Assembly (NCBI GenBank): GCA_963701965.1
Contig: OY969695.1
Span: 2,624,001-2,688,000 of the forward strand
From: an uncultured Gemmatimonadales bacterium
GTDB lineage: Bacteria; Gemmatimonadota; Gemmatimonadetes; Gemmatimonadales; Gemmatimonadaceae
Direction: 5' to 3'
DNA length: 64,000 bases
Positions 19,825-63,977 of the stretch are shown piece after piece; the stretch's first letter is position 1; each line of letters begins with the position of its first letter. Position numbers and translations under genes: made by a program. The notes below the pieces were generated by a model that saw nothing but the letters and a program-made list of their open reading frames with translations, was not told the DNA's origin and did not search any database.

Positions 19825-19853
19825 TTGACCTACCGTCAAGCGTCCCATACGTT
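19825..19853 (+). promoter_or_regulatory. Sigma70-like promoter of the rpmH operon
   Basis: TTGACC-N17-TACGTT, overlapped by the inverted repeat CGCTTGAC-N5-GTCAAGCG. Confidence 0.6.
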
Positions 19854-19889
19854 TCCGTGTCTGTATCCGAATTGGAGTTCGAGGAAATA

Positions 19890-20391: not shown

Positions 20392-20394
20392 GCG

Positions 20395-20604
20395 ATGCGC
20401 ACGGTGTTGATCGCCATGGTACGACTGTATCAGGTCGGTCTGTCGCCGCTCTTGCCCGCGTCCTGCCGTTATTATCCGACCTGTTCGGCGTATGCGGTGA
20501 CCGCGCTCGAACGCTACGGGGCCGTCCGCGGCGCGTGGCTCGCGGCGCGCCGCATCGCCCGCTGTCATCCGTTCCATTCCGGCGGCTACGACCCGGTTCC
20601 ATAG
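20395..20604 (+). CDS. yidD: Membrane protein insertion efficiency factor
   Basis: [10 protein letters not shown]...RIARCHPF...GGYDPVP. Confidence 0.96.
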
Positions 20605-20619
20605 AGCATTCCACAACGC

Positions 20620-33276: not shown

Positions 33277-33284
33277 AAGCAAGA

Positions 33285-33355
33285 GACAACAAGAAAGCGC
33301 CCGTTGATGGACCAGCCGGGTGTCGCGGAGAGCAATCTCCGCGGCACCCGGTCTG
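33285..33355 (+). ncRNA. Candidate structured RNA motif, copy B (xoxF-xoxJ intergenic)
   Basis: 16-bp stem at 33316-33351 with a GCAA tetraloop; 5' GACAACAA...AAGCGCCCGTTGAT shared with copy A. Confidence 0.55.
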
Positions 33356-33400
33356 ACATGAAGACTAGATTTCCTGTGAGGACCAGGCTGCGAGGGTTTG

Positions 33401-34243
33401 GTGGATCGAATACTACACACGCTCTCCGTCGCGCTCTTTCTTTCACTCGCCGGCATCGAGGCCGGGGCGCAACAAGCGCAACTATCCGGACCGCTCTTGC
33501 TCCGGGTCTGCGCCGATCCCAACGATCTGCCCGTCTCGAACGACAAGCGCGAGGGCTACGCCAACAAGATCGCCGAGCTCATTGCCAGCGACCTCGGCGC
33601 GCAGGTGACATACACGTGGTGGCCCAGCCGGCGCGGGTACATTCGGAATACGCTGCGCGCTGGGGATTGCGACGTCGTCATCGACGTGCCGGCGCAGTAT
33701 GAGCTGGTCGCGGCCACCAAGCCGTACTACAGATCGGTCTATGTGGCGGTCAGCCGAAAAGACCGCGATCTCCGCATCAGCTCGCTCGACGATCCCCGAC
33801 TCAAGACGCTCAAGGTCGGTGTCAGCGAGATCGGCGACAACTATACGCAGACACCGCCGGCCGACGCGCTCTCCGCGCGCGGGATCTCGAGCAACCTCGT
33901 GTGGTTCACGTCGTTCTACGACCCCGACCATCACCCCGGGGACATCGTGAACGCGGTCGCCGACGGCAAGGTCGACGTCGCGTTCGTGTGGGGGCCGTTC
34001 GCGGGATATTTCGCCAAACAGTCGGCCGCACCGCTCGACATCACCTTGTTACCCGACAGCGACGCCATCACCGGCAAGCAACTGGCATTCACCCAAGCCA
34101 TGGGCGTCCGCCGCAGCGATCGCGAGCTGATGGATAAGCTCAACAATGTCATCGAGCGCCGGAAGACGGACATCGACAAGATCTTGCATGACTACGGCGT
34201 CCCGACGCTGCCGATCACCGCGACGCAGGCCGACCGCAAGTAG
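33401..34243 (+). CDS. xoxJ: XoxJ/MxaJ-like periplasmic binding protein
   Basis: LRVCADPNDLP, CDVVI, TKPYYRS, VWGP, ILHDYGVP. Confidence 0.88.
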   Translation: MDRILHTLSVALFLSLAGIEAGAQQAQLSGPLLLRVCADPNDLPVSNDKREGYANKIAELIASDLGAQVTYTWWPSRRGYIRNTLRAGDCDVVIDVPAQYELVAATKPYYRSVYVAVSRKDRDLRISSLDDPRLKTLKVGVSEIGDNYTQTPPADALSARGISSNLVWFTSFYDPDHHPGDIVNAVADGKVDVAFVWGPFAGYFAKQSAAPLDITLLPDSDAITGKQLAFTQAMGVRRSDRELMDKLNNVIERRKTDIDKILHDYGVPTLPITATQADRK

Positions 34244-34265
34244 TCACCAACTCTCCCCAACGCAT

Positions 34266-34691
34266 ATGCACATTTTTCTTGCCATCCTTTCCTTGGCGCT
34301 CCCGCCCGACAGCCTCGGCGTGAATGCCGTCGTGTACCAGGGCTGGAAAATGTTCGAGGTCTATTGCACGCGCTGCCACGGCGAGGATGCGGTCGGTTCG
34401 AGCTTCGCGCCCGCCCTCAAGAAGTCGGTGGGGCCTGACGGCACCATCGATCACAAGGCCTTCTGGCTGACGGTGACGAATGGCCGCCCGGGCAAGGGTA
34501 TGCCGACGTGGGGCAACCTGCTGTCGCCGGAGCAAAAGGAAGACGTCTGGAATTACCTGCGCGCGCGCGCCGTCGGCCATCTGGCGCCCGGCCGTCCGCA
34601 TCTCATCAAGGGCGCGAACCGGGACTCGACGGCGTTTCCGCCGGCCCAGGGAAACGACACGACGTTCGTTCCGCCGTTCTTGAAGGAGTGA
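34266..34691 (+). CDS. xoxG: Cytochrome c (XoxG-like electron acceptor)
   Basis: CTRCH heme motif, GMP axial Met; position after xoxFJ. Confidence 0.75.
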   Translation: MHIFLAILSLALPPDSLGVNAVVYQGWKMFEVYCTRCHGEDAVGSSFAPALKKSVGPDGTIDHKAFWLTVTNGRPGKGMPTWGNLLSPEQKEDVWNYLRARAVGHLAPGRPHLIKGANRDSTAFPPAQGNDTTFVPPFLKE

Positions 34692-34700
34692 CGCCCGAAC

Positions 34701-35432
34701 ATGCACGGCCACCTGTTCCTCGCGTTGGGCCTCCTCGCGGCCGTCCCGCTGGCCGGCCAACCCATGAGTCGCGAGTCCGTGGCGCGGTTGATCGCCGCCG
34801 CGGGCCCCGACCATGGGCCCGATCTCTCCGGTCGTGACCTGTCGGCCCTCGACCTGTCCGGTCTCAATCTGTCGCGCGCGAAATTGACCCAGGCGACGTT
34901 GAACGGAACGAAGTTCACGCACGACACGATGTTCGCCGCGGATTTGAGCGGCGCCCACGCCCATGGGGCCAACTTCGACGGGGCGGTGCTCGACGTCGCC
35001 GTCATGCGGGGTACGGATCTCACGGGTGCATCGTTTCGGAATGCCAGCATCTACGCGGTCATCATGCTGAACGCCGACTTGAGCGGCGCGGATCTCACGG
35101 GCGCCCGATTGATCGGCGCCATGACTGACACGAAGCTGGTGCGCGCCAAGTTGGTGGACCTCAAGGGCGGCGCGGACATGCGCAATCAACCCATGGGACT
35201 CATGCGCACGGACTTGACCGGCGCCGATCTCACCGGTGCCGATCTCACGGGCGCGAACCTGCAGCACGCCAAGCTGGTCCGCACGAATTTCACCAACGCG
35301 ACGGTCACGCGCGCCGATCTCGCGAACGCCAATGTCAACAGCGCGATCTTCACGGGCGCGAAGGGCCGCGACACGATCGTGGGCTGGAATCGCGCGCTCA
35401 ACACCGACCAGGCCATACTGGATCCTCAATGA
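34701..35432 (+). CDS. Exported pentapeptide-repeat protein
   Basis: A(D/N)LxG repeats. Confidence 0.92.
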   Translation: MHGHLFLALGLLAAVPLAGQPMSRESVARLIAAAGPDHGPDLSGRDLSALDLSGLNLSRAKLTQATLNGTKFTHDTMFAADLSGAHAHGANFDGAVLDVAVMRGTDLTGASFRNASIYAVIMLNADLSGADLTGARLIGAMTDTKLVRAKLVDLKGGADMRNQPMGLMRTDLTGADLTGADLTGANLQHAKLVRTNFTNATVTRADLANANVNSAIFTGAKGRDTIVGWNRALNTDQAILDPQ

Positions 35433-36373
35433 CCCCTGTCACACGTCTCACGCTCGCCGTACTGCTCACGCCCGCGGTCGCTCATGCCCAGCGGCTATAC
35501 GCCAGCAACGAAGGCGGCAACAGCATCTCGATCGTGGATCTCCGCACGGGGACCATGACGGGCACGTTCCCCGTCGGCAATCGGCCCCGAGGCATGGTGT
35601 TGAGTCCTGACGGCAAGACGGTCTATGTCGCGCTGGGACGGGACAATGCCATCGCCGTGATCGACGTCGCCAAGGACAGCGTCGTCGACAAGATCCCGGC
35701 GAGTGTGGATCCCGAGCAGGTGACGTTGAGTGTCGACGGCAAGACGGCATTCGTCTCGAACGAAGAGACGGCCATGGCGTCGGCGATCGATCTGGCGACG
35801 AAGCAGATCAAATGGACCGTGCCGGTCGGCAAAGAGCCGGAAGGCGTAGGCGTCACTCCGGATGGCACGCGCCTCTACGTGACCGGCGAATCCGACAGCA
35901 GTGTCACGGTGCTCGACGCCAAGACCGGAAAGCGCATCACGCAATTCCGCGTTGGCGCGCGACCGCGGTTCGTCGCGTTCGATCGGACCGGGTCACGCGG
36001 GTACATCACGGCGGAGGCGGGGGGGAAGGTCACGGTCGTCGACGCGCCGGTGAATCGCGTCCTCAAGACGGTCAGCGTCGGGGATTCGACCCGGCCCACC
36101 GGGGTCGTCGTCGCGCCCAATGGCCGGGAGGTGTACTTCGCCAACGGCAAAGCGAATCGCATCTCCGTGTTCAGTCCGGCGGCCATGATGGTCACGGACA
36201 CCATCCCGGTCGGCCAACGGCCCTGGGGCGTCGCATTGTCGCCGGACGGGAATACGCTCTACTCGGCCGACGGCCGATCCAATCAGATCTCGGTGATCGA
36301 CGTCGTCCGCAAGAAGGTGATCCGCACGATCACCGTCGGCGAGCGACCCTACGCCCCGCTGCTGGTTCGCTGA
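35429..36373 (+). CDS. YVTN-type beta-propeller protein (PQQ-catabolism associated)
   Basis: Repeated VG..P.G...SPDG..LYV units. Confidence 0.9.
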   Translation: MTPVTRLTLAVLLTPAVAHAQRLYASNEGGNSISIVDLRTGTMTGTFPVGNRPRGMVLSPDGKTVYVALGRDNAIAVIDVAKDSVVDKIPASVDPEQVTLSVDGKTAFVSNEETAMASAIDLATKQIKWTVPVGKEPEGVGVTPDGTRLYVTGESDSSVTVLDAKTGKRITQFRVGARPRFVAFDRTGSRGYITAEAGGKVTVVDAPVNRVLKTVSVGDSTRPTGVVVAPNGREVYFANGKANRISVFSPAAMMVTDTIPVGQRPWGVALSPDGNTLYSADGRSNQISVIDVVRKKVIRTITVGERPYAPLLVR

Positions 36374-48726: not shown

Positions 48727-49751
48727 GCCCGGGCCAGGAGGAGCGCGACCGCCGCGGCCGGCGCACATTCCGCGGCGGCGACGCCCAGCGTGTCGGAGAG
48801 CGCGATCGGCTGCAGCCCTGCTTGGCGGCAGGCCGCCTCGGCGATCGCCGCGCCGATGCCGGCAACGACGCCCGTGGACAGCGAGGGGTGGCGCTCCCGG
48901 ACCCGGGCGATCGCGCCCGCGGTGCGCGCCACCTGCGCGTCGCCGACGTACGTGGCGATGGCATTGATCGCCTTTTCGTCCAGCATTTCCCGGTCGGCGC
49001 ACACGACGCGGGCGATCCGCTCGGCCGCGAACGTACGCGCCGCGGGGCGGCCATCGGGCGTTGGCGCCGTGTACACCGTGGAACTGATCGTTCCGCGCCA
49101 CACGTGCACATCGCCCACGAGCGCGAAGCCCTCCGCGCTCACGCCGGCCCAACCAGCGCCCAGCGGCACCGCCCGCACGATCGCTTCGACCGGTGTCCGC
49201 ACCGCGCCCAGGTAGACCAGCTCACCCGATGCCAGACGTTCGGGATCGGTATGTCCCTCGGCGACGACCCGCCCGTCGACGATCGGGATGATGTCGGTCG
49301 TCGTCGAGCCGATATCGACCAGGACCGCATCCGGGACGTGCGCGGCGACCATCTGCGCCATGGCGACCCAGTTGGCGGCCGCCACGGCGAGCGGCTCGCG
49401 CCGGGCCGACTCGACCGTGAGCCAGCGGCCGTCGGTCGTGAATACCGCGATGCGGGCGCGCGGGAACGCGGCGGCGACGCCATTGAGCACAAACGCGACC
49501 CCTTCGCGCTTCGTCCGAAAGGCCTGTGACAGCTCGGCGGTCATGGTCACCGCGTGGGCCTCTTCGCCGATCCCCCCGATCTCGGCGGCGAGCGTGGTCA
49601 AGAGCCCGGGCAACGCGCCGAGGTCGCGCTGGATCTCGTAGGGCCGCGACCGCACGGCGACCACGCCGGGCCGCCCCGCGGCGTCCACGCCAACGCCGGC
49701 GACCTTGGTGTTGACGCCACCGATGTCCCAGCCGATTACCGTACAGGTCAT
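48723..49751 (-). CDS. Hydantoinase/oxoprolinase-like MfnF/Orf9 homolog
   Basis: GWDIGGVNTK, TMTAEL, AAANW, DIGSTTTDI, GELVYLG. Confidence 0.88.
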   Translation of the reverse strand: MTCTVIGWDIGGVNTKVAGVGVDAAGRPGVVAVRSRPYEIQRDLGALPGLLTTLAAEIGGIGEEAHAVTMTAELSQAFRTKREGVAFVLNGVAAAFPRARIAVFTTDGRWLTVESARREPLAVAAANWVAMAQMVAAHVPDAVLVDIGSTTTDIIPIVDGRVVAEGHTDPERLASGELVYLGAVRTPVEAIVRAVPLGAGWAGVSAEGFALVGDVHVWRGTISSTVYTAPTPDGRPAARTFAAERIARVVCADREMLDEKAINAIATYVGDAQVARTAGAIARVRERHPSLSTGVVAGIGAAIAEAACRQAGLQPIALSDTLGVAAAECAPAAAVALLLARA

Positions 49752-50436
49752 GCGGCTCATTGGGGTGATCGACTTGGCCGGCGGGCAAGCGGTCCACGCG
49801 CGCGGAGGGCAGCGGGCCGCCTACGCGCCCGTTCGATCCGCGCTTTTACCTTCCGGCGGCGGCGCCGATCCCGTTGCGCTGGCGCGCGCCTATCTCGATG
49901 TGCCGGTCGCGGAAATATACGTGGCCGATCTCGATGCGATCGCCGGCGACGAGCCGGCTTGGGATACGGTCGAGGCCCTGTCGCGGCTCGGCGTGCCGGT
50001 CTGGATCGATGCGGGCCAGCGCTCGGTCGAGGTCGCGGCGGGAGCGCCCACGGTGCGGGCGGTGATCGGGCTCGAGACGTTGCGCTCATGGCACGAGCTG
50101 GCAGCGCCAGGCGCTGCCTTCAGCCTCGATCTCCGACGTGGCCGCCCACTCGTGGGCGACGAGCCGCCCGCGGCCCTGGCGCGGCGCGCAGTGGCCGCCG
50201 GCGCTTCCGCCATCGTCCTGCTCGACCTCGCCCGCGTCGGGTCGTCAACCGGGCTCGACTGGGTAACGGTCCAGGAAGTCCGTACGTCAACGATGGGGGT
50301 GGAACTCATCGTCGGCGGAGGCGTACGGGACTCACAGGACGTGGATCGGCTGGCGGATCTGGGCTGCAACGGAGTCCTCGTCGCAACTGCCCTCCATGAG
50401 CGTCGCCTTGGGCACGGAGTTTTCCTGAGGACTTGA
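49750..50436 (+). CDS. HisA-related TIM-barrel protein (Orf17-like)
   Basis: IGVIDLAGGQAVHARGG, YVADLDAI, LDLARVG, GGGVR, ATALH. Confidence 0.87.
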   Translation: MRLIGVIDLAGGQAVHARGGQRAAYAPVRSALLPSGGGADPVALARAYLDVPVAEIYVADLDAIAGDEPAWDTVEALSRLGVPVWIDAGQRSVEVAAGAPTVRAVIGLETLRSWHELAAPGAAFSLDLRRGRPLVGDEPPAALARRAVAAGASAIVLLDLARVGSSTGLDWVTVQEVRTSTMGVELIVGGGVRDSQDVDRLADLGCNGVLVATALHERRLGHGVFLRT

Positions 50437-50439
50437 GGG

Positions 50440-51084
50440 ATGAGAAAAGCGACGGCGGTATTCGTGGCGGCGATAGCGGCCGGGGTCGCCACTGGCGGCG
50501 CCCTACCCGCGCAAGCGGTGCGGCTGGGAGTGGTCATGGATGGACCACGGCAACAGCTCATCGAAGCGTGGAACGATGCGAACCCGCGGCAGGTCGAGCG
50601 CGCGTACTGCGTCGTCGATTGGTCGTTTGGCGTCTACCATGTTTCGCGCACGCCGCCGATTCAGGATGACACGGTGTTCCGCGTGTTCGCCATCAAACCG
50701 ACGGACGTGTCCAACGCGACGCCCGCGTCCGCGGACTTCGAGTGCCCCACCGGGAGCCCGGAGTTGCACGTGCACACGCCGACGACGTGTATGGGCGACG
50801 ATGTCGACACGTGCCGGCTGGGCGGCCTCAACGCATATAGCTGTCAGCCGAGCCGCAATGATTACGAGAAGCTCGTGCGCCGGCACGACACGTTCGGTGT
50901 GATCCAGTGCGACCGGCGGTCATTTCGCTTCTACTATCCGAGCGACTACGCGACGCCCGACGAGACGTGGCTGTCGAGCGCCGCGGGCAAGCCGCCGGAG
51001 GTCAAACAACGGCCCGGGAATCTGACGCCGGCCATGAAGCCTGGATATGAGCGTCAGCCCCATCAGGGCGACCAACAGCCCTAG
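50440..51084 (+). CDS. Secreted Cys-rich protein with a JAB/MPN+-like motif
   Basis: Signal peptide ending AQA; E (VERAYC)...HVH...PSRND. Confidence 0.6.
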   Translation: MRKATAVFVAAIAAGVATGGALPAQAVRLGVVMDGPRQQLIEAWNDANPRQVERAYCVVDWSFGVYHVSRTPPIQDDTVFRVFAIKPTDVSNATPASADFECPTGSPELHVHTPTTCMGDDVDTCRLGGLNAYSCQPSRNDYEKLVRRHDTFGVIQCDRRSFRFYYPSDYATPDETWLSSAAGKPPEVKQRPGNLTPAMKPGYERQPHQGDQQP

Positions 51085-51267
51085 TGTCTGGTCGTATCCT
51101 TCGGCATTCTGTTGGTGCGCCATGCCCGTGTCGGTCGACGCCGCTGGCGGCGGCTGCGTCGCTGCCGCGCCCGTATCGGCCATTGCGCCACTGCTCGAGT
51201 TCGATGTTCGCCCCCCGCTGCAGGCGGTGAGCAAGGCGGCGACTGCTATCGCTGTCACGTATCTCAT
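51081..51267 (-). CDS. Small lipoprotein (probable +1 frameshift at ~51107)
   Basis: SD GGGAG; LTAC lipobox; removing one base gives ...QMPKDTTRH* with stops overlapping at CTAG. Confidence 0.6.
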
Positions 51268-51344
51268 GGATTGTGCTCCCCGAAGTTGGATAGTCCCCGA
51301 AACCACGGTGTTTGAGCAAGTACCGGACCCATTAGGTTGCAGAC

Positions 51345-51786
51345 ATGGATCGTCGCGCATTCCTTTACGCTGGTACGAGCGCAGCTGTAGGACTGCTGTT
51401 CCGGCAGCCTGACGACGATGAGCCGACGGAGGCCGTGAAACGCGTATTGGCTACGCGCTTCGGGTCTCGTCCGCTGACCAAGGGGCATGTGCAGTTCGAC
51501 ATTCCCGAAAACGCGCCCGATGGCCGCGCGGTGCCGGTATTCATCGAGACGGATTTACCGATGACGCCGGAGCGTTACGTCAAGGCGTTCCATCTCCTTG
51601 TCGACCACAACCCGGACATTTATCTCGCCGGGTTCACGTTCTCTCCGGCCCTCGGCGCGGCGTCGATCGACACGCGCATCAGAGATGCGGCGCACGTCCT
51701 ATGTGCGCGCCATCGCCGAGATGTCGAGTGGCGAGTTGTACGTGTCGGCGAAGAAAGTGTTCGTTTTGCTCAACGGGTGCGGCTGA
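51345..51786 (+). CDS. SoxY-like sulfur carrier with Tat signal (frameshift at ~51682)
   Basis: MDRRAFL; PENAPDGRAVPV, VDHNP, TRI; the shifted frame ends NGCG. Confidence 0.85.
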
Positions 51787-52124
51787 TGGCGACCGGCGAT
51801 GCGCGCGTGATCGTTCCCGCCGGTATCAAGGCCGGCGATGTCATCTACGTGCGGGCCATCATCGAACATCCCATGGACACGGGATTCTTTCGCACCCCCG
51901 ACGGCCAGCCGATCCCGGCGTATTTCATACAGGATGTCACCGTCCGATACGGCGAGGACGAGATCGCGCACTACGAGTGGACGTCGGGGGTGAGCCGGGA
52001 TCCATCGGTGACGTTCGCGTTGAAGGCGGTGCGTGAAGCGCCGATCGCCGTGACGTGGAAGGACAACAAGGGTGGTGTGTACCACCAGTCGGCCGACGTG
52101 AGATTCGCGCCGCAGGCGCAATGA
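51786..52124 (+). CDS. SoxZ-like protein
   Basis: IIEHPMDTG, IPAYFI, VSRDP, WKDNKG. Confidence 0.87.
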   Translation: MATGDARVIVPAGIKAGDVIYVRAIIEHPMDTGFFRTPDGQPIPAYFIQDVTVRYGEDEIAHYEWTSGVSRDPSVTFALKAVREAPIAVTWKDNKGGVYHQSADVRFAPQAQ

Positions 52125-53939
52125 TCGCGCGGGCGCTGCTCGGCGCCCTGGTTGCTCTCCCGCCGCTGTTGCCGTTACCCCGACCAACGGCGTATCCCAG
52201 CGTCAGATTGGCCGAAGGGGTGTACGCGGTGCCCGGCGACACGGGACGCGGCTCCGAGGGACGGGCCAACGCGGGCTTCGTCGTCACGGACAGCGGCGTG
52301 GTGGTCATCGACGCCGAGTCCAGTCCCTATCAAGCCAAGCGCCTGCTCGCCAGCATCCGGCGTGAGACGCCGGCGCCCGTGCGGTGGCTGATTCTCACGC
52401 ACCACCATCCCGACCATACGTTCGGCGCGATCGTGTTCAAGCGGATGGGCGCTCAGGTGATCGCGCATCCCGATCGACATTTCCTCGCCGCCGAGGAAGG
52501 CGACGATGCGCTGGTCGCCAACTGGGATGGCGTCGTCGGTGTCCAGCAACTGGTGGGGTTCGCGTTCGCCGACACGCCGGGTTTGGCGATCACGCACGAC
52601 ACCACGCTCACGCTCGGCCGTCGCCGCATCGAGATCCTGCATCCGCCCGACGCGCACACGGCGGGGGATCTCGCTGTCTTGATCCCGGCGCAGCCGGGAT
52701 CGGGCCAACCGACCTCGGATCTCGCGACGCGAAGCGTCGCCGGGATTCCCGACGTCCGCGTGCTCTTCGCCGGGGACATCGTTGTCGAGGATGGGGTGAG
52801 CATGGTGGTCGATGGCACGGCGTCGGGGACGCTGCGGGCGCTCGACCGGTTCGAGGCGTTGCATCCCGCCGTCGTCGTGCCGGGGCACGGGCGGATCGAG
52901 GCCGATCCGGCATCCCAGATCGCGCGCACGCGGACGTACCTCGACTCGGCGCGGACCGCGCTCAAGGCCGCGCTCGATCGCGGGATGCCGCTCAGCCGTG
53001 TGCTGGCGCGGATGCCGCCGCCGGATTCCGGACGCCCGGTGTCGCTCGCGTCGCGCCATCAGCGGAACGCGGTGCGCATCTACGCCGAGCTCGAGAAGGA
53101 ATTGATAGACCCGCCCCATTCAGGTCTGATCTCGACCGACTCATTAGCGAGTCTGATCAAGAACGGCCAGGCGACGATCGTCAATGTGCGTACGGACGTC
53201 TCGTTGTATCTGGAGTCGCACATTCCTGGCGCCGTATATCTGCACGCCGAGTCGCTGCGATCGTTCGACCACGGGGTGCCGAATCTGCTCCTCCCACCGG
53301 AGAGCTACGCGACGCTCTTCACGCGCATCGGCATCCGCCCCGACCGCCCCGTCATCGTGTACAGCGCGGGAGACACGCGCAACATCGACGCGACGTATCT
53401 GGCGTGGATCCTGGATGGTTTCGGGGTGCCGGTGTCGGTGCTCGACGGTGGTTTTCAGAAGTGGGATCTGGACCAGAAGCCCACGGGGCGCACGTACCCG
53501 GCACCGGTGCCAGGCACGTTTCCCGTGCGGGCGTTTGAGCCGGCCCGGGCCACGCTCGATGATGTGAAGCACGTCGTCGAGGCGCATCCCGCGGACGCGG
53601 TGCTCGTCGACGCGCGGTCGCCAGAGCAATATGCCGGGCAAGCGGGCGCCCAGAATGCGGCGCGGACACATTCCGGGTGCGGTCAATCACCCGTGGACGA
53701 CCGATCTGACGACGGGGTTGTCGCACGTCTTCAAGGATCGCGATGCCATCCGCACCAGCTATGTGACGCAGGGTATCACGTCGGACAAAGCCATCATCGC
53801 GTATTGCAACGGCGGACTCGAGTCCAGCCACATCTACTTCGTGCTGCATATGGTGCTCGGCTATCCGCGCGTCCGGGTGTACGACGGTTCGTACACCGAG
53901 TGGGCGGCGCACACCGAGCTGCCGGTGGTGGGCCCTTAG
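52121..53939 (+). CDS. Exported MBL-fold (SoxH-like) plus tandem rhodanese fusion (frameshift at ~53654)
   Basis: NAGFVV, THHHPDH, AHT.GD, FAGD, PGHG; HIPGA twice, LDGG, YCNGGLES, YDGSYTEW. Confidence 0.85.
52681..52747 (+). repeat. Dispersed GATC-bounded double-hairpin element, copy 3, in frame inside a CDS
   Basis: Encodes IPAQPGSGQPTSDLATRSVAGI. Confidence 0.9.
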
Positions 53940-54478
53940 CGCACGACGATCAGCGCCGGGTGGCGGATCCCGCCATCGGCGAGGCGCACCGCGGCGTCGA
54001 TCGAGTCGGCGTCCCAGGCCGCGAGCACGACGCGGTCCGTGCCGGCGGCGAACGTGGCCAGGTCAGTCGAGGACAGCACCGGCTCTTTGAGCGCGTGCCC
54101 GACCGAGTCGGCGCGGTAGGGGTGCGTGTGCCACGTGCCAATGAGCGCGGACACGTGTGTGCAGGTACCGGTGACCGCGAACTGGAGCTGGTGGAGCCCC
54201 AAAGCCGGCGTCCAGTCCGTGATGTAGACGGTGTCGGCGCTGACGTGGCCGATGAGACAGCCCAAGTATTCGCGCTGGGTCGGTTTCCCGGTGCCCAGCA
54301 TCTGGGTCAGCGTGTTGACGTCGGACAACTCGTTCCAATGCGTGTTGTTGCGGAGCCAGATGGCGTTGATCGAGTCGGCGACCGGACGCGCGATCACCAC
54401 GACGGCGGGTGGGTGGGGTGCGGGCGACAGGGCTACCCCGGCACACAGTAAGACTCGAAGCAACGACGGGCGCAGCAT
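53936..54478 (-). CDS. Secreted JAB/MPN+-like metalloprotease
   Basis: Signal-like N-terminus; REYLGCL...GTWHTHP...LSSTD. Confidence 0.72.
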   Translation of the reverse strand: MLRPSLLRVLLCAGVALSPAPHPPAVVVIARPVADSINAIWLRNNTHWNELSDVNTLTQMLGTGKPTQREYLGCLIGHVSADTVYITDWTPALGLHQLQFAVTGTCTHVSALIGTWHTHPYRADSVGHALKEPVLSSTDLATFAAGTDRVVLAAWDADSIDAAVRLADGGIRHPALIVVR

Positions 54479-55394: not shown

Positions 55395-55683
55395 GGGCAA
55401 TGCCCAGATCTTGCTACGGCCCACTGGGCGTAGCAAGATCCTGGTCGGTTGAACAGATCTGGGCTTTGCCCAGATCTTGCTACGGCCCACTGGCGTAGCA
55501 AGATCCTGGTCGGTTGAACTGATCTGGGCTTTGCCCAGATCTTGCTACGGCCCACTGGCGTAGCAAGATCCTAGTCGGTTGAACTGATCTGGGCTTTGCC
55601 CAGATCTTGCTACGGCCCACTGGCGTAGCAAGATCCTGGTCGGTTGAACTGATCTGGGCTTTGCCCAGATCTACCTACGGCCC
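55395..55683. repeat. Tandem array of 65-bp palindromic units (REP/BIME-like), four full copies plus a partial one
   Basis: Units start at 55402, 55468, 55533, 55598 and 55663; GTAG next to the GATCTGGGC-AAA-GCCCAGATC hairpin; between convergent genes. Confidence 0.93.
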
Positions 55684-55856: not shown

Positions 55857-56405
55857 TCAGCCGGAGCCGATGCCCGTGCGCAAGTCCGGGGACCGCCCCA
55901 CGGCCTCGCGGTAGACGGCCGACTGGCCGAAGTTCTCCTCTACCTCGATCTCGATCACCCCAAGTCGACCCGCCGCGGAGCCGAGCTCCGTTTTGACTCG
56001 CCCGGCCAAGTACTGGGCCAACATCTCGACGGTGGTGTTCGGGATCGGGAGGAGAACGCAGTCTTCGCGGGGAAACACGTAACGGGGGCGGTGCTCGTAG
56101 GCCACCGTTATCGTTTCCCCCTGCTCGCCGATCACGAGCTTCGGGTTCTCCAAGGGCAGGAGCACCCAATGGTCGATCTCATCGCACAGCCGCTTCATCA
56201 GCCGCTTGAGGTCGACAAAGTTGAACACATACCAACTTTCGGGATCGAGTGGCCCCTCCAGCGCGACGGCGACACGGTAGTTGTGGCCGTGCAGGTTCTC
56301 GCAGCGGTGTCCGGCGAACGTGATGAAGTGCGCGGACGAGAACACGAGATAGTCTTTCGTGACCTGCACCCGGAAGAGCTTTTCGGCGTGATCAGTGGTC
56401 GGCAT
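55857..56405 (-). CDS. 6-pyruvoyl-tetrahydropterin synthase/QueD-family protein
   Basis: FSSAHF, CENLHGHNY, NTTVE. Confidence 0.9.
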   Translation of the reverse strand: MPTTDHAEKLFRVQVTKDYLVFSSAHFITFAGHRCENLHGHNYRVAVALEGPLDPESWYVFNFVDLKRLMKRLCDEIDHWVLLPLENPKLVIGEQGETITVAYEHRPRYVFPREDCVLLPIPNTTVEMLAQYLAGRVKTELGSAAGRLGVIEIEVEENFGQSAVYREAVGRSPDLRTGIGSG

Positions 56406-57285
56406 GCCAGAGTCCCGAGAGAAGACCAACAAAGAGCGAAGCCGCGGTGAGATCCGCGGTCGTGCCGGGATTCAACCGGCGCTCGCGCAGCGTGTGGTCA
56501 AATGTGGAAAGCGTCACGCGCCCGGCGAGCACGGCCGCCGCGCCGCGGCTGACAGCCGCGGCCGTGGGGGCGCCATGGCGACGGGCAATATGTGTATCGG
56601 GCGCGGCAGCGAGAAGGTGTAGGTAGGTGTCCACCGTCGCGGGCTCCCAACCCGCGCCCGTCGCCAGCGCCGCTCGCAACGTCGGAAACCCGAGCTCGAA
56701 CGTCGTCTCGAAATCCGTCGCGTACTCGCGGGCGACGCCATCCCGCTCGGCAGCCAGGCGCATCGTCTCGCGCAAGGCGATCCGAGGCTCGGCCGCAACG
56801 TCCTCGGCGCTGACGGCGCCGAGCCCGCCCGGTCGCGCGAGCCGGATCGCCGCATAGACCTCGCGCGCGTCCTCCACTGTCGTCGCCGCTAACATCTCGC
56901 CCAACGCTTCCCGAAGCCTCTTCGGGGCGCGAGATCCCTTGTCGATAACAGGGGTCGCGGCTTCGCCAGGATGCATGCGCTCGGTTTCACGGGCCCCGGC
57001 CTGGGCCGCGCGCGCAGCGCGCGCCAGCGGGACGATGAGCAGGACGATGCCGAGGTTGGTGTTCGAGCGCGTCCAGCGCGCTGTTGCCTGTACGGCCGCG
57101 TGTATGGTGGCGCCGAGCGGGCGGTCACCAGCGAGCGCGGGGCCGAGCGCGGCAGCGCTCGCCAAAAAGTCCTCGTAGCGCGCATCATGAAAATGTCGAT
57201 CGGGCGACACGTTGCCGGGTTTGGGCGCGCTCGCTTCCAGGAGGCAGGCGAGCTGGGCGGCCGCGACAATGAAGTCATCCGTCAT
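56392..57285 (-). CDS. CitG-like triphosphoribosyl-dephospho-CoA synthase family protein (Orf7-like)
   Basis: LEASAPKPGNV, NTNLG, DTHIAR, NPGTTAD. Confidence 0.9.
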   Translation of the reverse strand: MTDDFIVAAAQLACLLEASAPKPGNVSPDRHFHDARYEDFLASAAALGPALAGDRPLGATIHAAVQATARWTRSNTNLGIVLLIVPLARAARAAQAGARETERMHPGEAATPVIDKGSRAPKRLREALGEMLAATTVEDAREVYAAIRLARPGGLGAVSAEDVAAEPRIALRETMRLAAERDGVAREYATDFETTFELGFPTLRAALATGAGWEPATVDTYLHLLAAAPDTHIARRHGAPTAAAVSRGAAAVLAGRVTLSTFDHTLRERRLNPGTTADLTAASLFVGLLSGLWHADH

Positions 57286-58146
57286 GTCGCCAGCGCCGCG
57301 TCGACAATAGCGCCAGCCACGTCGAGCCCAGTAGCCTCCTGCAACCCGCGCCACCCCGGAATGCCATTGACCTCCAGCGCATACACCGGCCCTTCGCGCG
57401 AGGGCAGGAGATCGACGCCGGCGTACATGGCGCCAACGGTGCGCGCCGCCGTGATCGCCATATCGCTCCAGTCCGCCGGCAGCGTAAACGGCCGCGCGCT
57501 TCCCCCGCGCGAGTAGTTCGTCCGCCAGCCAGGCCCATCGGCGGATGCCGACCGTTCGATGGCGCCGACGACGCGGTCGCCAACGACGAACGCGCGAACG
57601 TCGCGCCCTTCGTGGGCGATGAACCGCTGCAGATAGAAAACCCCCCGCAGCTGCTCGATCGCCCGAAAGACCCGCCACGCGACGTCCTCGTCGGACACGC
57701 GCACCATGCCCAGCCCCATGGAACCAAAGAGCGGTTTGACAATGACGTCGCGCAGATCCCGAAACGCCGCCATGGCGTCATCCGCCCGCTCGCAGACGAC
57801 AGTCTCCGGCGTCGCCAACCCGGCGCGCTCGAGCAACGCCGACGTCAAGAACTTGTCCACCGTGCGCTCAATGGCACGCGGCGCATTGACGACCCGCACG
57901 CCCACATCACTGAGCCAGTGCAGCGCATCGATCCGATAGAATGATCTGCTCCAACGACCCGTTGGGGATGATGCGCGCCAGCACGAGATCCCCGGGCCGG
58001 ATAGACGGCGGAACGCGGCGGCCTGCGCCCAGGCGGCTCACGATGCCTTCCCACGGGACGATCCGCACCGCCGCCCCGCGTTTGGCGAACGCGCGGCAGA
58101 GCTGCTCCGTATGCCAGCCCTGTCGTGACGCGAGAATCGTGACTAC
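57282..58146 (-). CDS. RimK-family ATP-grasp glutamate ligase (Orf5/MyfA-like); frameshift at ~57940, no canonical start
   Basis: GWHTEQL, IPNGSLEQI, VDKF, KPLFGSMG, DVRAFV, EVNGIPGW. Confidence 0.88.
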
Positions 58147-58466
58147 TTGGACGACTCCACGCCGATCAGCGCGGTGAGACCACCCGTGGCAAAGTTCGCC
58201 AGATCGTCCGACACCTTCTTGAACCCCGGCGTAGCCATGCCCTTCTTGAGCGCGTCCAGCGACGGAAAGAAGAGTTGCGCCTGGCGGTACAACGTCGGCG
58301 TCTTTCCGTCCGCGGTCGACACGAACTTGGTGAGGATCACGTTGGAAATCCCGATCTCTTTCGCGTTCGCGCTCACGAGCGGCAGATGCGTCGCCTCGTA
58401 GTAGCGTTCAAACGCCGCGGCGTCCTTCGGCGTGTTGTACAGGACGACCAGCTCCGCTTGGGCCAT
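58143..58466 (-). CDS. EthD-family protein
   Basis: VLYNTPKDAAAFERYYEATHLPL...DLANFA. Confidence 0.85.
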   Translation of the reverse strand: MAQAELVVLYNTPKDAAAFERYYEATHLPLVSANAKEIGISNVILTKFVSTADGKTPTLYRQAQLFFPSLDALKKGMATPGFKKVSDDLANFATGGLTALIGVESSK

Positions 58467-58482
58467 CGCGCGATCTCCGCAG

Positions 58483-59439
58483 TCAGGAGTAAAGAGAGGA
58501 CCGAAGAATGTTGGGATTGAGGTCTCCGCCCTGGAAGGTCCGCCCGGAGCGCGCACTCGTCAACCAGACTTCGGCGGGACTGAACAACAGCGGGTCGATC
58601 TTGTAGAAGTCGCCTTTGTAGCGGGTAAACGTCTCGTAGAACGGCGTGCCGTAGTCGGACGACGCCGAGGCCGGAAGCTTGGCGGCGAGCGGTTCCAGCT
58701 CCGCGTCGTCGGCATCGATCAGGAATCGCGCCTCCCCGCCGTACAGGATGCAATCATTCGTGCGGCCTATCGCCCGGAGATCGTTGGTGCAATAGGGAGG
58801 CACCGGCGCCGACCCGGCGGCATGCACGACGCGGGTCACATCGAAGCCCAGCGCATCCATCTTGTGCAAGCCGGTTTCCAGCACGCGGGCGACGATCTGC
58901 ACGCTGCCCGCGGTGCTCGCGGTGGGGGCCACGACGAACGTCAGCTGTGGCGGCGTGAGACGCGCGCGGGCGGCGACCCACTCGGCCACCGCGTCGGTCG
59001 GGTGGGCGCGGGTCTCCATCACGAGTACGCCGCGCGCCGCGGTCTCCTGGTACCGGAGCTTCTCGAACAGCTCCTTCTCGACGCGGGCATGAGCCCGGAG
59101 CGGCCCCGACCCCATCGCGAAGAACTTGTCGACCTGAATCGCCCAGCCCGCGTACTGCGAAGCCATGCAGGAAACCGCGGGATGGTCAGTCCAGACTTCG
59201 ACGCCCGTGTAGTCGTCGGGCCCTACGCGCACCGTTTGATAGGCAATGTGTCCGAGACCACCCATGCACACCTGCGCCAGCGCCAGGCCCGCGCCATAGC
59301 CGCCCGGCACGTCGATCCCCAGGTCAATGATCCGCGCGCCGGATGGGAGTGTCGAGACGGCGATACGCAACTCCTCGCTGCGCGCCGCGACGTCATCCGC
59401 GATCGTCGCGGCCCTCGCGTTCAGTCTCAGGTCGTCCAC
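58483..59439 (-). CDS. mch: Methenyl-H4MPT cyclohydrolase
   Basis: CMGGLG, SQYAGW, MGSGP, RVLETGLHK, GRTND, IDPLLFSPA. Confidence 0.96.
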   Translation of the reverse strand: MDDLRLNARAATIADDVAARSEELRIAVSTLPSGARIIDLGIDVPGGYGAGLALAQVCMGGLGHIAYQTVRVGPDDYTGVEVWTDHPAVSCMASQYAGWAIQVDKFFAMGSGPLRAHARVEKELFEKLRYQETAARGVLVMETRAHPTDAVAEWVAARARLTPPQLTFVVAPTASTAGSVQIVARVLETGLHKMDALGFDVTRVVHAAGSAPVPPYCTNDLRAIGRTNDCILYGGEARFLIDADDAELEPLAAKLPASASSDYGTPFYETFTRYKGDFYKIDPLLFSPAEVWLTSARSGRTFQGGDLNPNILRSSLYS

Positions 59440-60239
59440 TGGAGAATCTCTCCTTTGCCGACGTCCGCCAGGTCGCCGACCCAGCGCGTGAAGAGCCCCG
59501 TGCCATATCCGGCGTCGATCGGGAAGTTCCGGACGCGGCGGAGGTAGCGGACGAGTACCGCAATGTGCGGCGGGCGGTACGTGCAGGCGAAACCATAGGT
59601 GGCCGGGATGTCCACGCCGCCCAGGGCGACGATCGAGCCGCGCTTGGACCACAGCCCCGTGCCGGGACCGGCGCGGCCGCACACGACGAGACTTCCGGCG
59701 ATCATGGCGTGCGCGGCGCGCGGCCCCGCATTGCCGCCGACGACGATCAGGCCGCGGCGCGCCCGCGCGCCGGCATCGGCGCCGGTGTCGCCGCGCACGA
59801 TGATCTCGCCCCCGATCATCCCACGCGATGCCCCCGGCGCCGCGCCGCCGAGCCGGTCGCCGGCCGAGCCGCGGATGGCCAGATACCCGCCCGCCATCGC
59901 GACGGCCGCACCGTCGCCGACGTCGCCCGTGGTCGCGATCGTCCCGCCGGTCATCGCCAGCCCGACGTCGCGGCCCGCCGGCCCGTCGATCGTGAGGGTC
60001 CCGCCCGTCATGTTCGTGCCCAACCCATCGACTTGTCCCAGCTCCCCCACGACGGTCACGTCCGCGCTCCGCTCTCCCTCGACATCGAAGATGTCGCCCA
60101 GCGCTGCGCGCTGGCGACCCACCCACACATCGAGGTGGGCGATCTCGGCCGTGCCAAGCGTGGCCAACCGATCGGCACAGATCAGCGAAGCGTCGATCGA
60201 CGCCGGGGCGCCTGGGCGCAGGGTGAGCGTGACACTCAT
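59427..60239 (-). CDS. fhcC: Formyltransferase/hydrolase complex subunit C
   Basis: GXGXG beta-helix repeats (MTGG); C-terminal GDLADVGKGE. Confidence 0.92.
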   Translation of the reverse strand: MSVTLTLRPGAPASIDASLICADRLATLGTAEIAHLDVWVGRQRAALGDIFDVEGERSADVTVVGELGQVDGLGTNMTGGTLTIDGPAGRDVGLAMTGGTIATTGDVGDGAAVAMAGGYLAIRGSAGDRLGGAAPGASRGMIGGEIIVRGDTGADAGARARRGLIVVGGNAGPRAAHAMIAGSLVVCGRAGPGTGLWSKRGSIVALGGVDIPATYGFACTYRPPHIAVLVRYLRRVRNFPIDAGYGTGLFTRWVGDLADVGKGEILQWTT

Positions 60240-61138
60240 GCGACGATCTTGCGCAGATAGAAGTGGTGCGGCCCGAGCTTGCCGCCGTAGTTGCCGGCGG
60301 TGATCAATCGGATGCCGGGCAGACAGGCGGCGGGAATGCCGGCGCGCATGGCGCGGGCAATACTGTCGAAATCCACTCCGTCGATGACAATCTCCATGAC
60401 CGAGTTGACGCCCGCCGGCAGCTCGGTGGCCGTCACGGGCCGCAGGGTCGGCGCGAACGCATCATTCGTCGTCGCGATCATGCTCGGGTATCGCTTCGAC
60501 CCGACTTTGCTGCCGCTGCGCACAATGCCCCCGGGAAAGGGCATGATGACGCCCGCGACGCCCGACATCGCGTCGATCGCCGCCTCGGCGGCCGCCAAAG
60601 CCCGCTCGGCGCTTTCCCCAAGCACGAGGAAGTTGCCGCCGCCGACGCCGGAGACCTTTCCGAAGCTCTCCTCGATCAGGCATTCGCCTTCCATGACCGG
60701 CAACCGCCAGTAGCGCGTGCCGCCGATCATCTTGCTGGACTGAAAGCCGTCGGCAAACACGCGCAACGCTTTGCCGACGGGCATCCGGTCCGGCGAGCCG
60801 GGAATCCCATCGAAGATCGACGTGGTCGGACAGGTGAGCACGGTTTGCCCGAGGCGTTCGATGAGCCGCTGCTGCAACCCGGCCGAGTCGGGCGTGAAGA
60901 CCAGCACGCTGATGCCGGGGCGACCGTCCGGGGTCTCCTCGCCGTCGATCTCGCGCTCGATGCCGGCTTCGACCTTGCAGCCAATGACCGAGGTCGCGAA
61001 TCCGGTCATCGTCGTCGCCGCCACGCGCGCCCAGCGGGCGTTCACCGCCGTGATGATCACGCGCGCGGCGCGCATGGGGAACGCCTCGGCGAACGTGTCG
61101 GCGATCTCGACGCCATTGATCGCAAACGGTTCACTCAT
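60236..61138 (-). CDS. fhcD: Formylmethanofuran:H4MPT formyltransferase subunit D
   Basis: DTFAEAF, TPDGRPG, VGGGNF, RSGSKVGS, AGNYGGKLG. Confidence 0.96.
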   Translation of the reverse strand: MSEPFAINGVEIADTFAEAFPMRAARVIITAVNARWARVAATTMTGFATSVIGCKVEAGIEREIDGEETPDGRPGISVLVFTPDSAGLQQRLIERLGQTVLTCPTTSIFDGIPGSPDRMPVGKALRVFADGFQSSKMIGGTRYWRLPVMEGECLIEESFGKVSGVGGGNFLVLGESAERALAAAEAAIDAMSGVAGVIMPFPGGIVRSGSKVGSKRYPSMIATTNDAFAPTLRPVTATELPAGVNSVMEIVIDGVDFDSIARAMRAGIPAACLPGIRLITAGNYGGKLGPHHFYLRKIVA

Positions 61139-62754
61139 CGAGCCACCGGATAATTCTCGAACGACACCGTGCCGTGCGCGTCGAAGTACCGCTTGATGTC
61201 GCGCTCCACCGCCGCGTCATACGCGGGTTGCACGCGCAGGCGGCGCCCTTGCGGCGCGCGCCGTAACTGACCCTCTTCGACGACCAGCGTCCCCGCCTTG
61301 ATCACGTAGCGCGGCGTCGAGAACATCTCGGCCAGGTTATCGGAACGGGCGTAGATCGTCACGTCGGCGTCGGCGCCGACGCCGAGGTGGCCCTTGTCGC
61401 GCAGCCCGAGGAGCCGCGCCGGGCCGGCCCGGGTGACGATGGCGATCTCGTTGAGGGTGTACACGCGGGCCAGGCCGTCGGCCAACGCGCTCCCGGCGAG
61501 CATCTTGTGATTGACGCGCTTGAGCTGGTCGTCGCGGTACGTCTTGTCCATCAGCAACCGGATCAACTCCGGATAGCTCATGAACGACCCGCCATTGGGA
61601 TGGTCTGTCGACAGCACCAGCCGCCAAGGGTCCGGCGACAGCAGAAACAGCTCCAGCCCGACGACCCACTGGAGCGCCGCGACCGCCGCGCTGTCCTTGT
61701 AGACGTAGGGCACGATGCCGCACCCCGTCTCCATCTCGATGTCGACGTTGACCCACTTCTTCCCGGTCGACATGTGGAGCAGATACTCGACGGCGCCGTC
61801 GGCGGTCAGCGTCGTGGCGTCGCCGAACATGACCTGGCCGACGTCGCCGCTGACTTCGGGATGGGTCGCGAAGTACTCGGCGATCTGCTTGGCCTCGGAC
61901 GTCCACGGCTTGCCGCGCGCGCCGCCATAGCTATGGAACTGCAGGTGCGTGAAGTGCGCCCGCCGCCCGGCGACGGCGCGCATGCTGTCGAGCGTCATGG
62001 CAATGTTCCCGGGCACGCCCAGATTGTTGCAATGGATGTGCACGGGATGGGGAAGCCCCAGCGCGTTGGCCGCGTCGGTCAACGTCTCCAGCACGGCGCG
62101 CGGCGTGACCGTGGGCGCGCCGATGGGGTCATCGAGCGAGTGGATCTCGCGCACGTTGCGCTTCCACAGCTCCACGCCGCCCGGATTCACGATCTTGATC
62201 GCGTAGCCCTGGATGGCGCCGAGGAGCCAGGCGGCGTAATCGCGGGCCCGATCGCGCTCACCCGCGGCGATCTGGCGCAGCAGGTAGTCGTCGTTTCCCA
62301 ACAGCGCGAAGAAGCCGGCGTCGATGATCGGTGTGTCGTCGAGCTGTGCGTGCGTGGACCGCGCCGTGATGGGGGCGACCGCGGCGTCGAACACCGTCGT
62401 GTAGCCCAGGCCCGCATACCGGTACCCCGTGGTGAAAGTGCTCGGCACGGTCCCACCACTCCCCGACCGGGCGAGCGAGGGTTCGTCATCCGCGAAGCGC
62501 GGAGCGCGAGCGGGGTCGGCCGCGTGCTCCTCGGGGAGGAGTTGCCGCGCCAGATTGGTGCTGGAGGCGGCGACGTGGGCGTGGATGTCGATCCCGCCCG
62601 GCATGACCACCATCCCCCGCGCATCGAGTCGCGGTGCATCGCCGCTCAGCGACGCGACGATCCTTCCGTCCTGGATGCGGATGTCGCGGATCTCGCCATC
62701 GACGCCATTCGCCGGGTCGTGGACGGCGCCACCGGTAATACGCAGCGCGCTCAT
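61135..62754 (-). CDS. fhcA: Formyltransferase/hydrolase complex subunit A (amidohydrolase)
   Basis: DIHAH, KIVNPGG, HIHCNNLG, HLQFHSYG, STDHPNG. Confidence 0.95.
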   Translation of the reverse strand: MSALRITGGAVHDPANGVDGEIRDIRIQDGRIVASLSGDAPRLDARGMVVMPGGIDIHAHVAASSTNLARQLLPEEHAADPARAPRFADDEPSLARSGSGGTVPSTFTTGYRYAGLGYTTVFDAAVAPITARSTHAQLDDTPIIDAGFFALLGNDDYLLRQIAAGERDRARDYAAWLLGAIQGYAIKIVNPGGVELWKRNVREIHSLDDPIGAPTVTPRAVLETLTDAANALGLPHPVHIHCNNLGVPGNIAMTLDSMRAVAGRRAHFTHLQFHSYGGARGKPWTSEAKQIAEYFATHPEVSGDVGQVMFGDATTLTADGAVEYLLHMSTGKKWVNVDIEMETGCGIVPYVYKDSAAVAALQWVVGLELFLLSPDPWRLVLSTDHPNGGSFMSYPELIRLLMDKTYRDDQLKRVNHKMLAGSALADGLARVYTLNEIAIVTRAGPARLLGLRDKGHLGVGADADVTIYARSDNLAEMFSTPRYVIKAGTLVVEEGQLRRAPQGRRLRVQPAYDAAVERDIKRYFDAHGTVSFENYPVAR

Positions 62755-63977
62755 CGCGCCCTCACCAGCGCCGTCAGCGCGCCCACGGTGCCCGCGGTCT
62801 CGCGGATGGTGCCGGCCAGCGGCGGCCGCAGCGGAAGCGGGATGTCATCGGCGCGCACGGCCGTCCCGCCGTCGTGAATGCCGGCCATGCCGGTGTCGAT
62901 CGCCACCGCGGCGTCGGTCGCGGTCGCGCGTGGTCCAATCACGATGCGGGATACTTTGGCGAAGCTGCCGGACGGGATCGACCCCGCGGCGCCGACGATC
63001 AAGACCACGTCGGGGTCGACGCGGGCGTCGGGATCATAGCGCGGGGCGCCCCGGGCGAAATCCACGGCCATCGGGTATCCGGTCTGCCACGTGAGCACCG
63101 ACTCGGCCCCCACACGGTTCCCTCCGGCGCGCATCGTGACGAGCGCGCACCGCGTGGGCCCATTGAGCGCCTCGGCCAACGCCAACAACGCCTCGGCCCG
63201 TCCCTCGTCGCGGCCCGGCCGTGGCTCGGCGTCGGCGATGAGGGCGACATACTTGGCGGCGACGAGCCGCGCGGCGAGCGCCGCGGGCTTGTCGCCGATC
63301 GGTGCAAGCGCGGCGCTCATGGGCCTGTCGCCACCGGGCATTCCGCCCGACGGCGCAACGGTTATAACGCGACCCAGTACCGCGGCGCGCATCAGCGCGG
63401 CCGCGGCGAGTTCCTGCGCGGCCGGGAACGCGAAGCGTTCCGCCGCGTCGGGCGGCCCGGCATCATCGCCAATGTCCACCGCGATGATCCCGGCGGGATT
63501 GGTCAGATAGCGCGACCGAAGTCGCGGATAGCCGCGCGCGGGGTCGATGCCCCAGAACACAATGACGTCGGCCCGGTTCCGCAGCTCGCCGAACGTCGCC
63601 CCGGCGCGCCCGCGGCGCTGCGCGGCGATGAGCCAAAACCCGGCGGTCAATGCCGTCAGCGTGTCGAGCGCCGCGCCCAGCGCATCGGCCAGCGCGACGG
63701 CTTCGCGCTGCGCCACACTCGACAGCTCGGCCGCGAGATAGATCAACGGACGCTTCGCCCGCATCAAGAGTGTCGCGGCTTCGCGCAGCGCGGTTGACGC
63801 GTCCGTGTCGGCGCCGCGCACACGGACACCGGAGGAGATGGCACCGTCGCCGAACCACGCCACGCCCAGCGGGCACGCGTTGCGGGCATCGGTGATCCGA
63901 CCGGCCGTCACCGTGACGGCAATGTCATCGCAAGCCAGCCCGCAGCCCAGACACGTGACGTGATCCACGACGGTCAT
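62751..63977 (-). CDS. fhcB: Formyltransferase/hydrolase complex subunit B
   Basis: CLGCGLACDD, RNRAD, WQTGYP, GTAVRAD. Confidence 0.92.
   Translation of the reverse strand: MTVVDHVTCLGCGLACDDIAVTVTAGRITDARNACPLGVAWFGDGAISSGVRVRGADTDASTALREAATLLMRAKRPLIYLAAELSSVAQREAVALADALGAALDTLTALTAGFWLIAAQRRGRAGATFGELRNRADVIVFWGIDPARGYPRLRSRYLTNPAGIIAVDIGDDAGPPDAAERFAFPAAQELAAAALMRAAVLGRVITVAPSGGMPGGDRPMSAALAPIGDKPAALAARLVAAKYVALIADAEPRPGRDEGRAEALLALAEALNGPTRCALVTMRAGGNRVGAESVLTWQTGYPMAVDFARGAPRYDPDARVDPDVVLIVGAAGSIPSGSFAKVSRIVIGPRATATDAAVAIDTGMAGIHDGGTAVRADDIPLPLRPPLAGTIRETAGTVGALTALVRAR

Follow-up and report, generated by a model that had tools for sequence, protein, structure and literature searches.

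Two predicted JAMM-fold proteins, probably exported, beside a SoxYZ-like cassette and a one-carbon gene island in Gemmatimonadota

In a 64,000-nucleotide stretch of DNA from an uncultured Gemmatimonadales bacterium (the window; positions 2624001-2688000 of a source genome that is a single contig of 5.1 Mb), two genes, JAB1 and JAB2, stand on either side of a cassette of SoxY-like, SoxZ-like and metallo-β-lactamase (MBL)-rhodanese genes. Alignments and structure models confirmed that both are conserved genes with a predicted MPN/JAMM fold and an intact catalytic motif. We tentatively read them, with a confidence that stops a little short of even, as exported JAMM-fold zinc amidohydrolases that may assist the lanthanide XoxF machinery of methanol oxidation as optional accessories in the periplasm, working alongside the SoxYZ-MBL-rhodanese relay and not on it. 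The two genes are:

50440..51084, plus strand: JAB1, JAMM/MPN+ fold protein of 214 amino acids, with a signal-like N-terminus ending A-Q-A and a low-confidence C-terminal tail
53936..54478, minus strand: JAB2, JAMM/MPN+ fold protein of 180 amino acids, with a signal-like N-terminus and an insertion before the catalytic Glu

The first-pass annotation of the window had read an E-HxH-SxxD pattern into both open reading frames (ORFs), and the pattern is present, as E53, H110, H112, S138 and D141 in JAB1 and as E70, H117, H119, S136 and D139 in JAB2. Homologue searches found 158 relatives of JAB1 and 621 of JAB2. In alignments of the best 120 of each, all motif residues were kept in 120/120 sequences, except S136 of JAB2 (119/120); because the residues are near-invariant, the motif is not a chance one. 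In the same alignments six cysteines were invariant in JAB1 and two in JAB2 (C74/C106), and JAB2 was found to carry a conserved insertion of about 25 residues just upstream of the catalytic Glu. The spacing from HxH to SxxD, 25 residues in JAB1 and 16 in JAB2, is longer than canonical.

The same annotation had proposed a check of the fold, which came out in its favor. AlphaFold2 models of JAB1 and JAB2 (predicted local distance difference test scores of 76.9 and 88.0) were compared with known structures by Foldseek and by a second fold search, and the top matches of both models in both searches were MPN/JAMM structures. For the JAB2 model these included an Rpn8/Rpn11 chain (Foldseek E 2e-6) and PfJAMM1 (Z 14.3, root-mean-square deviation 2.6 over 118); the JAB1 model matched more weakly (Foldseek E 3e-3; PfJAMM1 Z 9.3, root-mean-square deviation 2.2 over 98), with MPN domains still heading both lists. 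By sequence, neither query matched any family in Pfam or NCBIfam, and PDB sequence searches with the JAB1 and JAB2 profiles gave no match. Weak matches to Prok-JAB (PF14464) were seen for 38/120 JAB2 homologues (best E 0.0018) and 0/120 JAB1 homologues. The two proteins are very distant from one another, with no BLAST similarity and an hhalign probability of 0.5%.

Relative to known JAMM/MPN+ peptidases (PfJAMM1 5ld9, AfJAMM 1r5x, Caldiarchaeum Rpn11 6fnn, Cap3 9ild, DRJAMM and the Prok-JAB family), the JABs are alike in predicted fold, in the E/HxH/SxxD residues and in being small stand-alone domains. They differ in their signal-like N-termini, invariant Cys pairs and long HxH-to-SxxD spacing, and in lacking a Pfam or NCBIfam match and a conserved β-grasp or E1 neighbor. 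A probably secreted deaminase-like fold is also shared with the JAB/deaminase-fold domains of polymorphic toxins, among which we take Tox-JAB to be the JAB domain to compare; clusters of DUF4329 are the nearest Atlas look-alikes of JAB1 (0.90-0.91). In contrast to those domains, the JABs are stand-alone and strongly conserved, with no carrier repeats and no conserved immunity-like neighbor.

Export was called with a simple hydrophobicity heuristic on N-termini, not with SignalP. By this measure, which left out as too short 5/120 JAB1 and 22/120 JAB2 homologues, a signal-like N-terminus was present in 106/115 JAB1 and 92/98 JAB2 homologues, compared to 10/172 cytoplasmic and 54/72 exported controls, in agreement with the signal peptides first suggested for the pair. 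All four JAB subfamilies described below share one Cys at four positions beyond the catalytic Glu and another ahead of HxH. These sequence features suggest that JAB1 and JAB2 are likely exported and disulfide-stabilized. Starting from such conserved proteins, with their intact motif, invariant cysteines and predicted fold, the proposed mechanism would run through Sec export and disulfide formation, for which the shared Cys pattern speaks, to a zinc ion held by His, His and Asp, and a Glu-activated water that would hydrolyze an amide bond in an extended substrate. The latter steps are drawn from the family: the accessible text of PMC8832034 describes JAMM enzymes whose Zn is held by an Asp and two His, with the cut made behind the C-terminal Gly of a ubiquitin-like or MoaD-type protein.

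Both genes lie within a methylotrophy island, in which a xoxF-type dehydrogenase, xoxJ, a cytochrome c and a YVTN propeller are followed by methanofuran/tetrahydromethanopterin (H4MPT) genes including mch:

31458..36373, plus strand: xoxF-type dehydrogenase with a vicinal CC (split near 32420), xoxJ, cytochrome c, pentapeptide protein and YVTN propeller
49723..50436, plus strand: HisA/F-like gene belonging to the methanofuran/H4MPT cluster, separated by 3 bp from JAB1 downstream and present at 18/18 of the closest JAB1 loci
55857..63977, minus strand: H4MPT C1 cluster, with family matches for PTPS-like, CitG-like, RimK-like and mch genes, and further genes; those after mch we take to be fhcC, ftr, fhcA and fhcB

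A D-x-D motif in the xoxF-type dehydrogenase presumably marks the lanthanide site. To compare gene occurrence across the phylum, to which the named JAB1 and JAB2 homologues belong, we surveyed 401 Gemmatimonadota genomes, using mch, a marker of H4MPT-dependent C1 metabolism, as a proxy for the methanol-oxidation gene set; it scored above the cut-off in 85/401 genomes (one weak match was dropped). JAB2 matched 46/401, of which 40 genomes (41 loci) were kept at E < 1e-40, the six with weak matches only belonging to other subfamilies. Of these 40, 39 were mch-positive and 32 SoxY-positive, and the eight without SoxY are 90-100% complete. Among mch-positive genomes JAB2 showed no association with SoxY (31/8/33/13; p 0.46).

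The weak matches revealed two further signal-bearing subfamilies, JAB3 and JAB4, neither of which has the insertion of JAB2 before the catalytic Glu. The scan for them covered 80 of the 90 genomes positive for mch or SoxY; of the ten left, nine had JAB2 and one (G397) was outside the scan. In 80 control genomes, drawn from the 311 lacking both mch and SoxY and representing the carriers' families as well as some of their genera, neither subfamily was found (0/80). Counting strong matches to any of the four subfamilies, an exported JAB was present in 70/85 mch-positive and 56/69 SoxY-positive genomes; 16 genomes had mch and an exported JAB with no SoxY, 13/69 SoxY genomes had no strong JAB match (one of them outside the JAB3/JAB4 scan), and any JAB again showed no association with SoxY among mch-positive genomes (p 0.51). 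JAB4 lies at most 30 kb from mch in 23/25 cases where both are on the same contig and, in the loci inspected, directly follows a YVTN-propeller gene, often as a tandem pair. In a quick tree with no outgroup the four subfamilies are deeply separated. Four divergent subfamilies are linked to the XoxF/H4MPT module both at the level of genomes and by repeated physical proximity, and the linkage to SoxYZ/PQQ (pyrroloquinoline quinone) loci first proposed for the JABs survives on the side of the C1 module.

These observations also bear on a different account, in which the JABs would be general envelope isopeptidases that cut amide links of peptidoglycan or lipoproteins, the C1 link reflecting shared ancestry and the habitat of these Gemmatimonadales. 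Peptidoglycan is the natural site of isopeptide bonds in the periplasm (general knowledge); most JAB2 and distant JAB1 loci sit among unrelated genes; some distant relatives have lipoprotein-like N-termini; and a prophage carries a signal-bearing JAB1 relative, flanked by lysis-like genes and regulatory ones (L083 9680-10228, genome G228). Against this, all four deeply separated subfamilies are seen repeatedly within the C1 island or close to it, JAB3 and JAB4 are missing from control genomes of the same families, a fusion to a peptidoglycan-binding domain was looked for and not found, and scans of viral contigs returned no JAB relatives. We consider an envelope isopeptidase unlikely.

Several results weigh against the accessory reading that we prefer. 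No strong JAB match was found in 15/85 mch-positive genomes; 4/15 JAB1 genomes lack mch, the gene lying once in a prophage; JAB1 occurs in three genomes negative for both mch and SoxY; and one JAB3 genome has no detected mch. A fifth signal-bearing JAB type (L085 and L086, of genomes G306 and G049) belongs to another order and has housekeeping neighbors and no mch or SoxY. At 36/41 JAB2 loci the neighbor genes are varied and lie outside the H4MPT cluster, and 35/53 JAB1 loci, also with varied neighbors, show no SoxY and no methanofuran/H4MPT markers. In the family of the source genome JAB2 fits SoxY better than mch: the JAB2 and SoxY sets are identical (10/94), neither gene is present in four mch-positive genomes, and both occur in one genome with no detected mch. 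The tally, moreover, tests mch as a proxy and not xoxF itself. Finally, mch, SoxY and the JABs are concentrated in the same genera, and the nesting could come from common descent or a shared way of life; since the genomes are related, the p-values given here overstate significance and describe only the sample.

The cassette that the two JABs enclose consists of three genes, whose SoxY, SoxZ, MBL and rhodanese identities are confirmed by Pfam:

51345..51786, plus strand: SoxY-like carrier with a twin-Arg N-terminus (DRRAFL) and the C-terminus LNGCG; frameshifted near 51683, intact in homologues
51786..52124, plus strand: SoxZ-like protein, its start overlapping the SoxY stop (TGATG)
52121..53939, plus strand: signal-bearing SoxH-like MBL fold fused to a tandem rhodanese, with the active-site loop CNGGLES; frameshifted near 53635

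The order of genes and their identities are as first described; two of the three cassette genes are frameshifted, and JAB2, being on the opposite strand and convergent with the cassette, is not on its transcript. An ORF of 259 amino acids that looked like a fused SoxYZ was rejected as a product of the frameshift, the two genes being separate in homologues. SoxY is present in 69/401 genomes, 64 of them mch-positive, and the cassette is conserved across 60 further SoxY genomes that were fetched, usually lying away from the xoxF island. At the loci L195-L197, from the JAB1 scan described below, it adjoins the tail of the xoxF operon. These results support the view that the SoxYZ-like cassette belongs to the quinoprotein/C1 module, as had been proposed.

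The bracket itself is confined to a few related genera. SoxY or SoxZ lies within about 10 kb at 5/41 JAB2 loci, all in the source genome's family (some loci stop at contig ends), and JAB1 or JAB2 adjoins SoxY at 0/60 other SoxY loci, these being the ones fetched from the 64 SoxY genomes that remained. JAB1 matched 15/401 genomes (one, G157, is counted in this tally only), and 53 JAB1 loci came from a scan that took in all species genomes, some of them on contigs already in the 401-genome sample. The 18 closest of these all lie among methanofuran/H4MPT genes; SoxYZ is within 8 kb at 12 and missing at 6, JAB1 directly precedes SoxY at 11, and the full bracket is seen at 6.

This distribution was weighed together with the idea that exported JABs reset the swinging arm of SoxY, hydrolyzing an adduct on or close to the C-terminal CG, within an extracytoplasmic carrier cycle that includes the MBL and rhodanese. 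The identical JAB2 and SoxY sets in the source family, the 11 loci with JAB1 just ahead of SoxY, the six full brackets and a third JAB subfamily two genes from the cassette in genome G056 would all fit it, as would the suitability of JAMM pockets for extended tails of small residues, as argued in the accessible part of PMC3239186. Its difficulties lie partly in the counts just given: no bracket at the 60 other loci, SoxY genomes with no strong JAB, and JAB- and mch-positive genomes with no SoxY. They lie also in SoxY itself. In an alignment of 54 SoxY C-termini, from which truncated gene predictions and two further types of SoxY were excluded, 49 ended NGCG and 5 NGCV directly at the stop codon (in the source genome NGCG is reached only across the frameshift), with no pro-peptide; the five genomes with a terminal Val carry JAB2, unlinked to SoxY. 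As SoxY ends at its stop codon there is nothing to trim, and the suggested trimming of its arm falls away. Sox cargo is thiol-linked, so that unloading by a JAB would need an amide-linked adduct instead; thiol-linked cargo would more naturally be the task of the rhodanese and the SoxH-like hydrolase. SoxY is furthermore not a β-grasp protein, and C-terminal activation needs ATP, which is absent from the periplasm (general knowledge). A complex prediction of JAB2 with SoxY of G343 scored 0.00 with the controls unfolded, and so gives no verdict and no evidence either way. A reset of SoxY by JABs is improbable on this balance, and a dedicated JAB-SoxY cycle across the phylum is not supported: with 8/40 JAB2 genomes lacking SoxY and a lineage-limited bracket, the conserved linkage that the general system first proposed would require is seen only within the source family. 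A bolder proposal would have the exported JAMMs reset an ATP-free periplasmic cycle of conjugation and deconjugation, by which XoxF is matured or repaired. In it the Ig-fold arm of SoxY would be the first JAMM carrier that lacks a ubiquitin fold, and JAB subfamilies would replace one another across Gemmatimonadales, in line with the 56/69 SoxY genomes with some exported JAB; we regard this proposal as improbable too.

On the reading of the JABs as accessories of XoxF, the bracket in the window would reflect accessory genes gathering in one C1 island. The least secure step concerns the substrate, which may be a tail or adduct attached by an amide link to periplasmic proteins of the XoxF/H4MPT module; the role would most likely be maturation or repair, for example the stripping of formyl or cross-link adducts that arise from periplasmic formaldehyde. 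The link to the C1 module would also suit a hydrolase of small molecules or a metal handler, which frees a C1 substrate (methyl esters, N-methyl or N-formyl amides) or opens a lanthanide chelator in the periplasm. The insertion of JAB2 could cap the cleft, and the accessible text of PMC3239186 argues that the ancestral substrates of the fold were non-peptide. Yet JAB3 and JAB4 have no such insertion, no conserved transporter or chelator-synthesis gene lies alongside the JABs, and characterized JAMMs are peptidases; we find this account rather unlikely.

The neighborhoods of the JABs were also searched for partners. Among 87 recurrent neighbor families scanned there was no β-grasp carrier or E1 gene. 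At three isolated loci, exported-type JABs lie beside genes that we take to be cytoplasmic and sulfur-carrier-like (cysteine synthase and TusA-like, ThiS/MoaD-like; L041 of G056, L157 and L158 of G226). An unannotated membrane-anchored protein of 89 amino acids with four invariant Cys, c3 (L033:9364-9642 and homologues), recurs at 17 loci; it is near-core in the sister family. It was rejected as a JAB partner, being present in 19/21 control genomes of the same order that have no mch, and not found in the source genome. One long form of JAB1, joined to the HisA-like gene, has the signal peptide mid-protein and was taken as read-through, and the few long forms of JAB2 examined look like mis-calls; neither was accepted as a fusion. 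A second JAB1 paralogue lies at 2726540-2727091 of the source contig, about 52 kb away in an unrelated neighborhood. Between JAB1 and SoxY, a putative small gene (50920-51267, minus strand) with a lipoprotein-like N-terminus (LLTAC) overlaps the JAB1 tail.

The frameshifts in window genes are likely assembly indel errors, because homologues are intact and four more genes of the C1 cluster between 39.9 and 58 kb are frameshifted (near 40110, 43015, 44260 and 57950), besides xoxF near 32420; in the single DNA sequencing run examined, no reads covered the sites in SoxY and MBL-rhodanese. No sigma-70 promoter pattern was found, and terminators showed no excess. At 52681-52746 the MBL domain carries an in-frame insertion of a dispersed repeat, about 66 bp long and represented by 38 BLAST pieces across the genome, that is absent from the one homologue compared. 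A 30-bp unit is repeated 7.1 times in frame within a 4-(hydroxymethyl)-2-furancarboxaldehyde-phosphate synthase (mfnB-like) gene at 44897-45110, and a 65-bp tandem repeat (4.3 copies, 97% alike), with related copies elsewhere in the genome, lies at 55401-55683 downstream of a pyridoxal phosphate (PLP) dehydratase gene. Genes at 16944-24351, presumably dnaN, dnaA, yidC and an mnmE-like gene, would put the C1 island near the origin of replication.

The closest described counterpart of the cassette is the quinoprotein relay of fused SoxYZ-like (TIGR04557), SoxH-like (TIGR04558/TIGR04559) and rhodanese proteins (PP_2666/2677/2678; PMC12997753), with which it shares the carrier, the hydrolase and the rhodanese, and an occurrence in genomes with PQQ/XoxF dehydrogenases. 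TIGR04559 is the best family of the window MBL. The window cassette differs in its scores (150-166 against a cut-off of 280), in encoding SoxY, with its NGCG arm, apart from SoxZ, in its tandem sulfurtransferase-type rhodanese and in its usual location away from the xoxF island. With canonical Sox (SoxYZ, SoxAX, SoxB, SoxCD) it shares SoxZ (just above the TIGR04490 cut-off) and a twin-Arg SoxY with a C-terminal Cys arm, which differs in falling below the TIGR04488 cut-off (76-95 against 125 in intact homologues) and in ending NGCG rather than GGCGG. In the source genome a search with short motifs found no SoxB or SoxC motif and no credible SoxA. The accessible text of PMC12997753 proposes disulfide maturation as the role of the relay and mentions no JAB; as far as that text and the accessible part of PMC11237559 go, the role of SoxYZ-like relays beside PQQ dehydrogenases is unsettled in print. 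Methylotrophy in Gemmatimonadota is itself already described in the accessible text of PMC5103831. The literature listings searched, which leave subscription papers and supplements outside, held no published description of an exported stand-alone bacterial JAMM, and those on SoxYZ and quinoproteins held nothing on an exported JAMM clade.

New here are two divergent JAB subfamilies, a tally across the phylum and a test of how the JABs are linked to SoxY. To our knowledge, characterized JAMM enzymes act inside cells on ubiquitin-like tails. An exported JAMM clade with disulfide-ready cysteines would need another substrate, in a compartment without ubiquitin-like chemistry. The JAB proteins are small and open to expression and to assays with SoxYZ, XoxF/J/G or small amides as substrates, so that both the substrate of the JABs and the role of the relay are testable.

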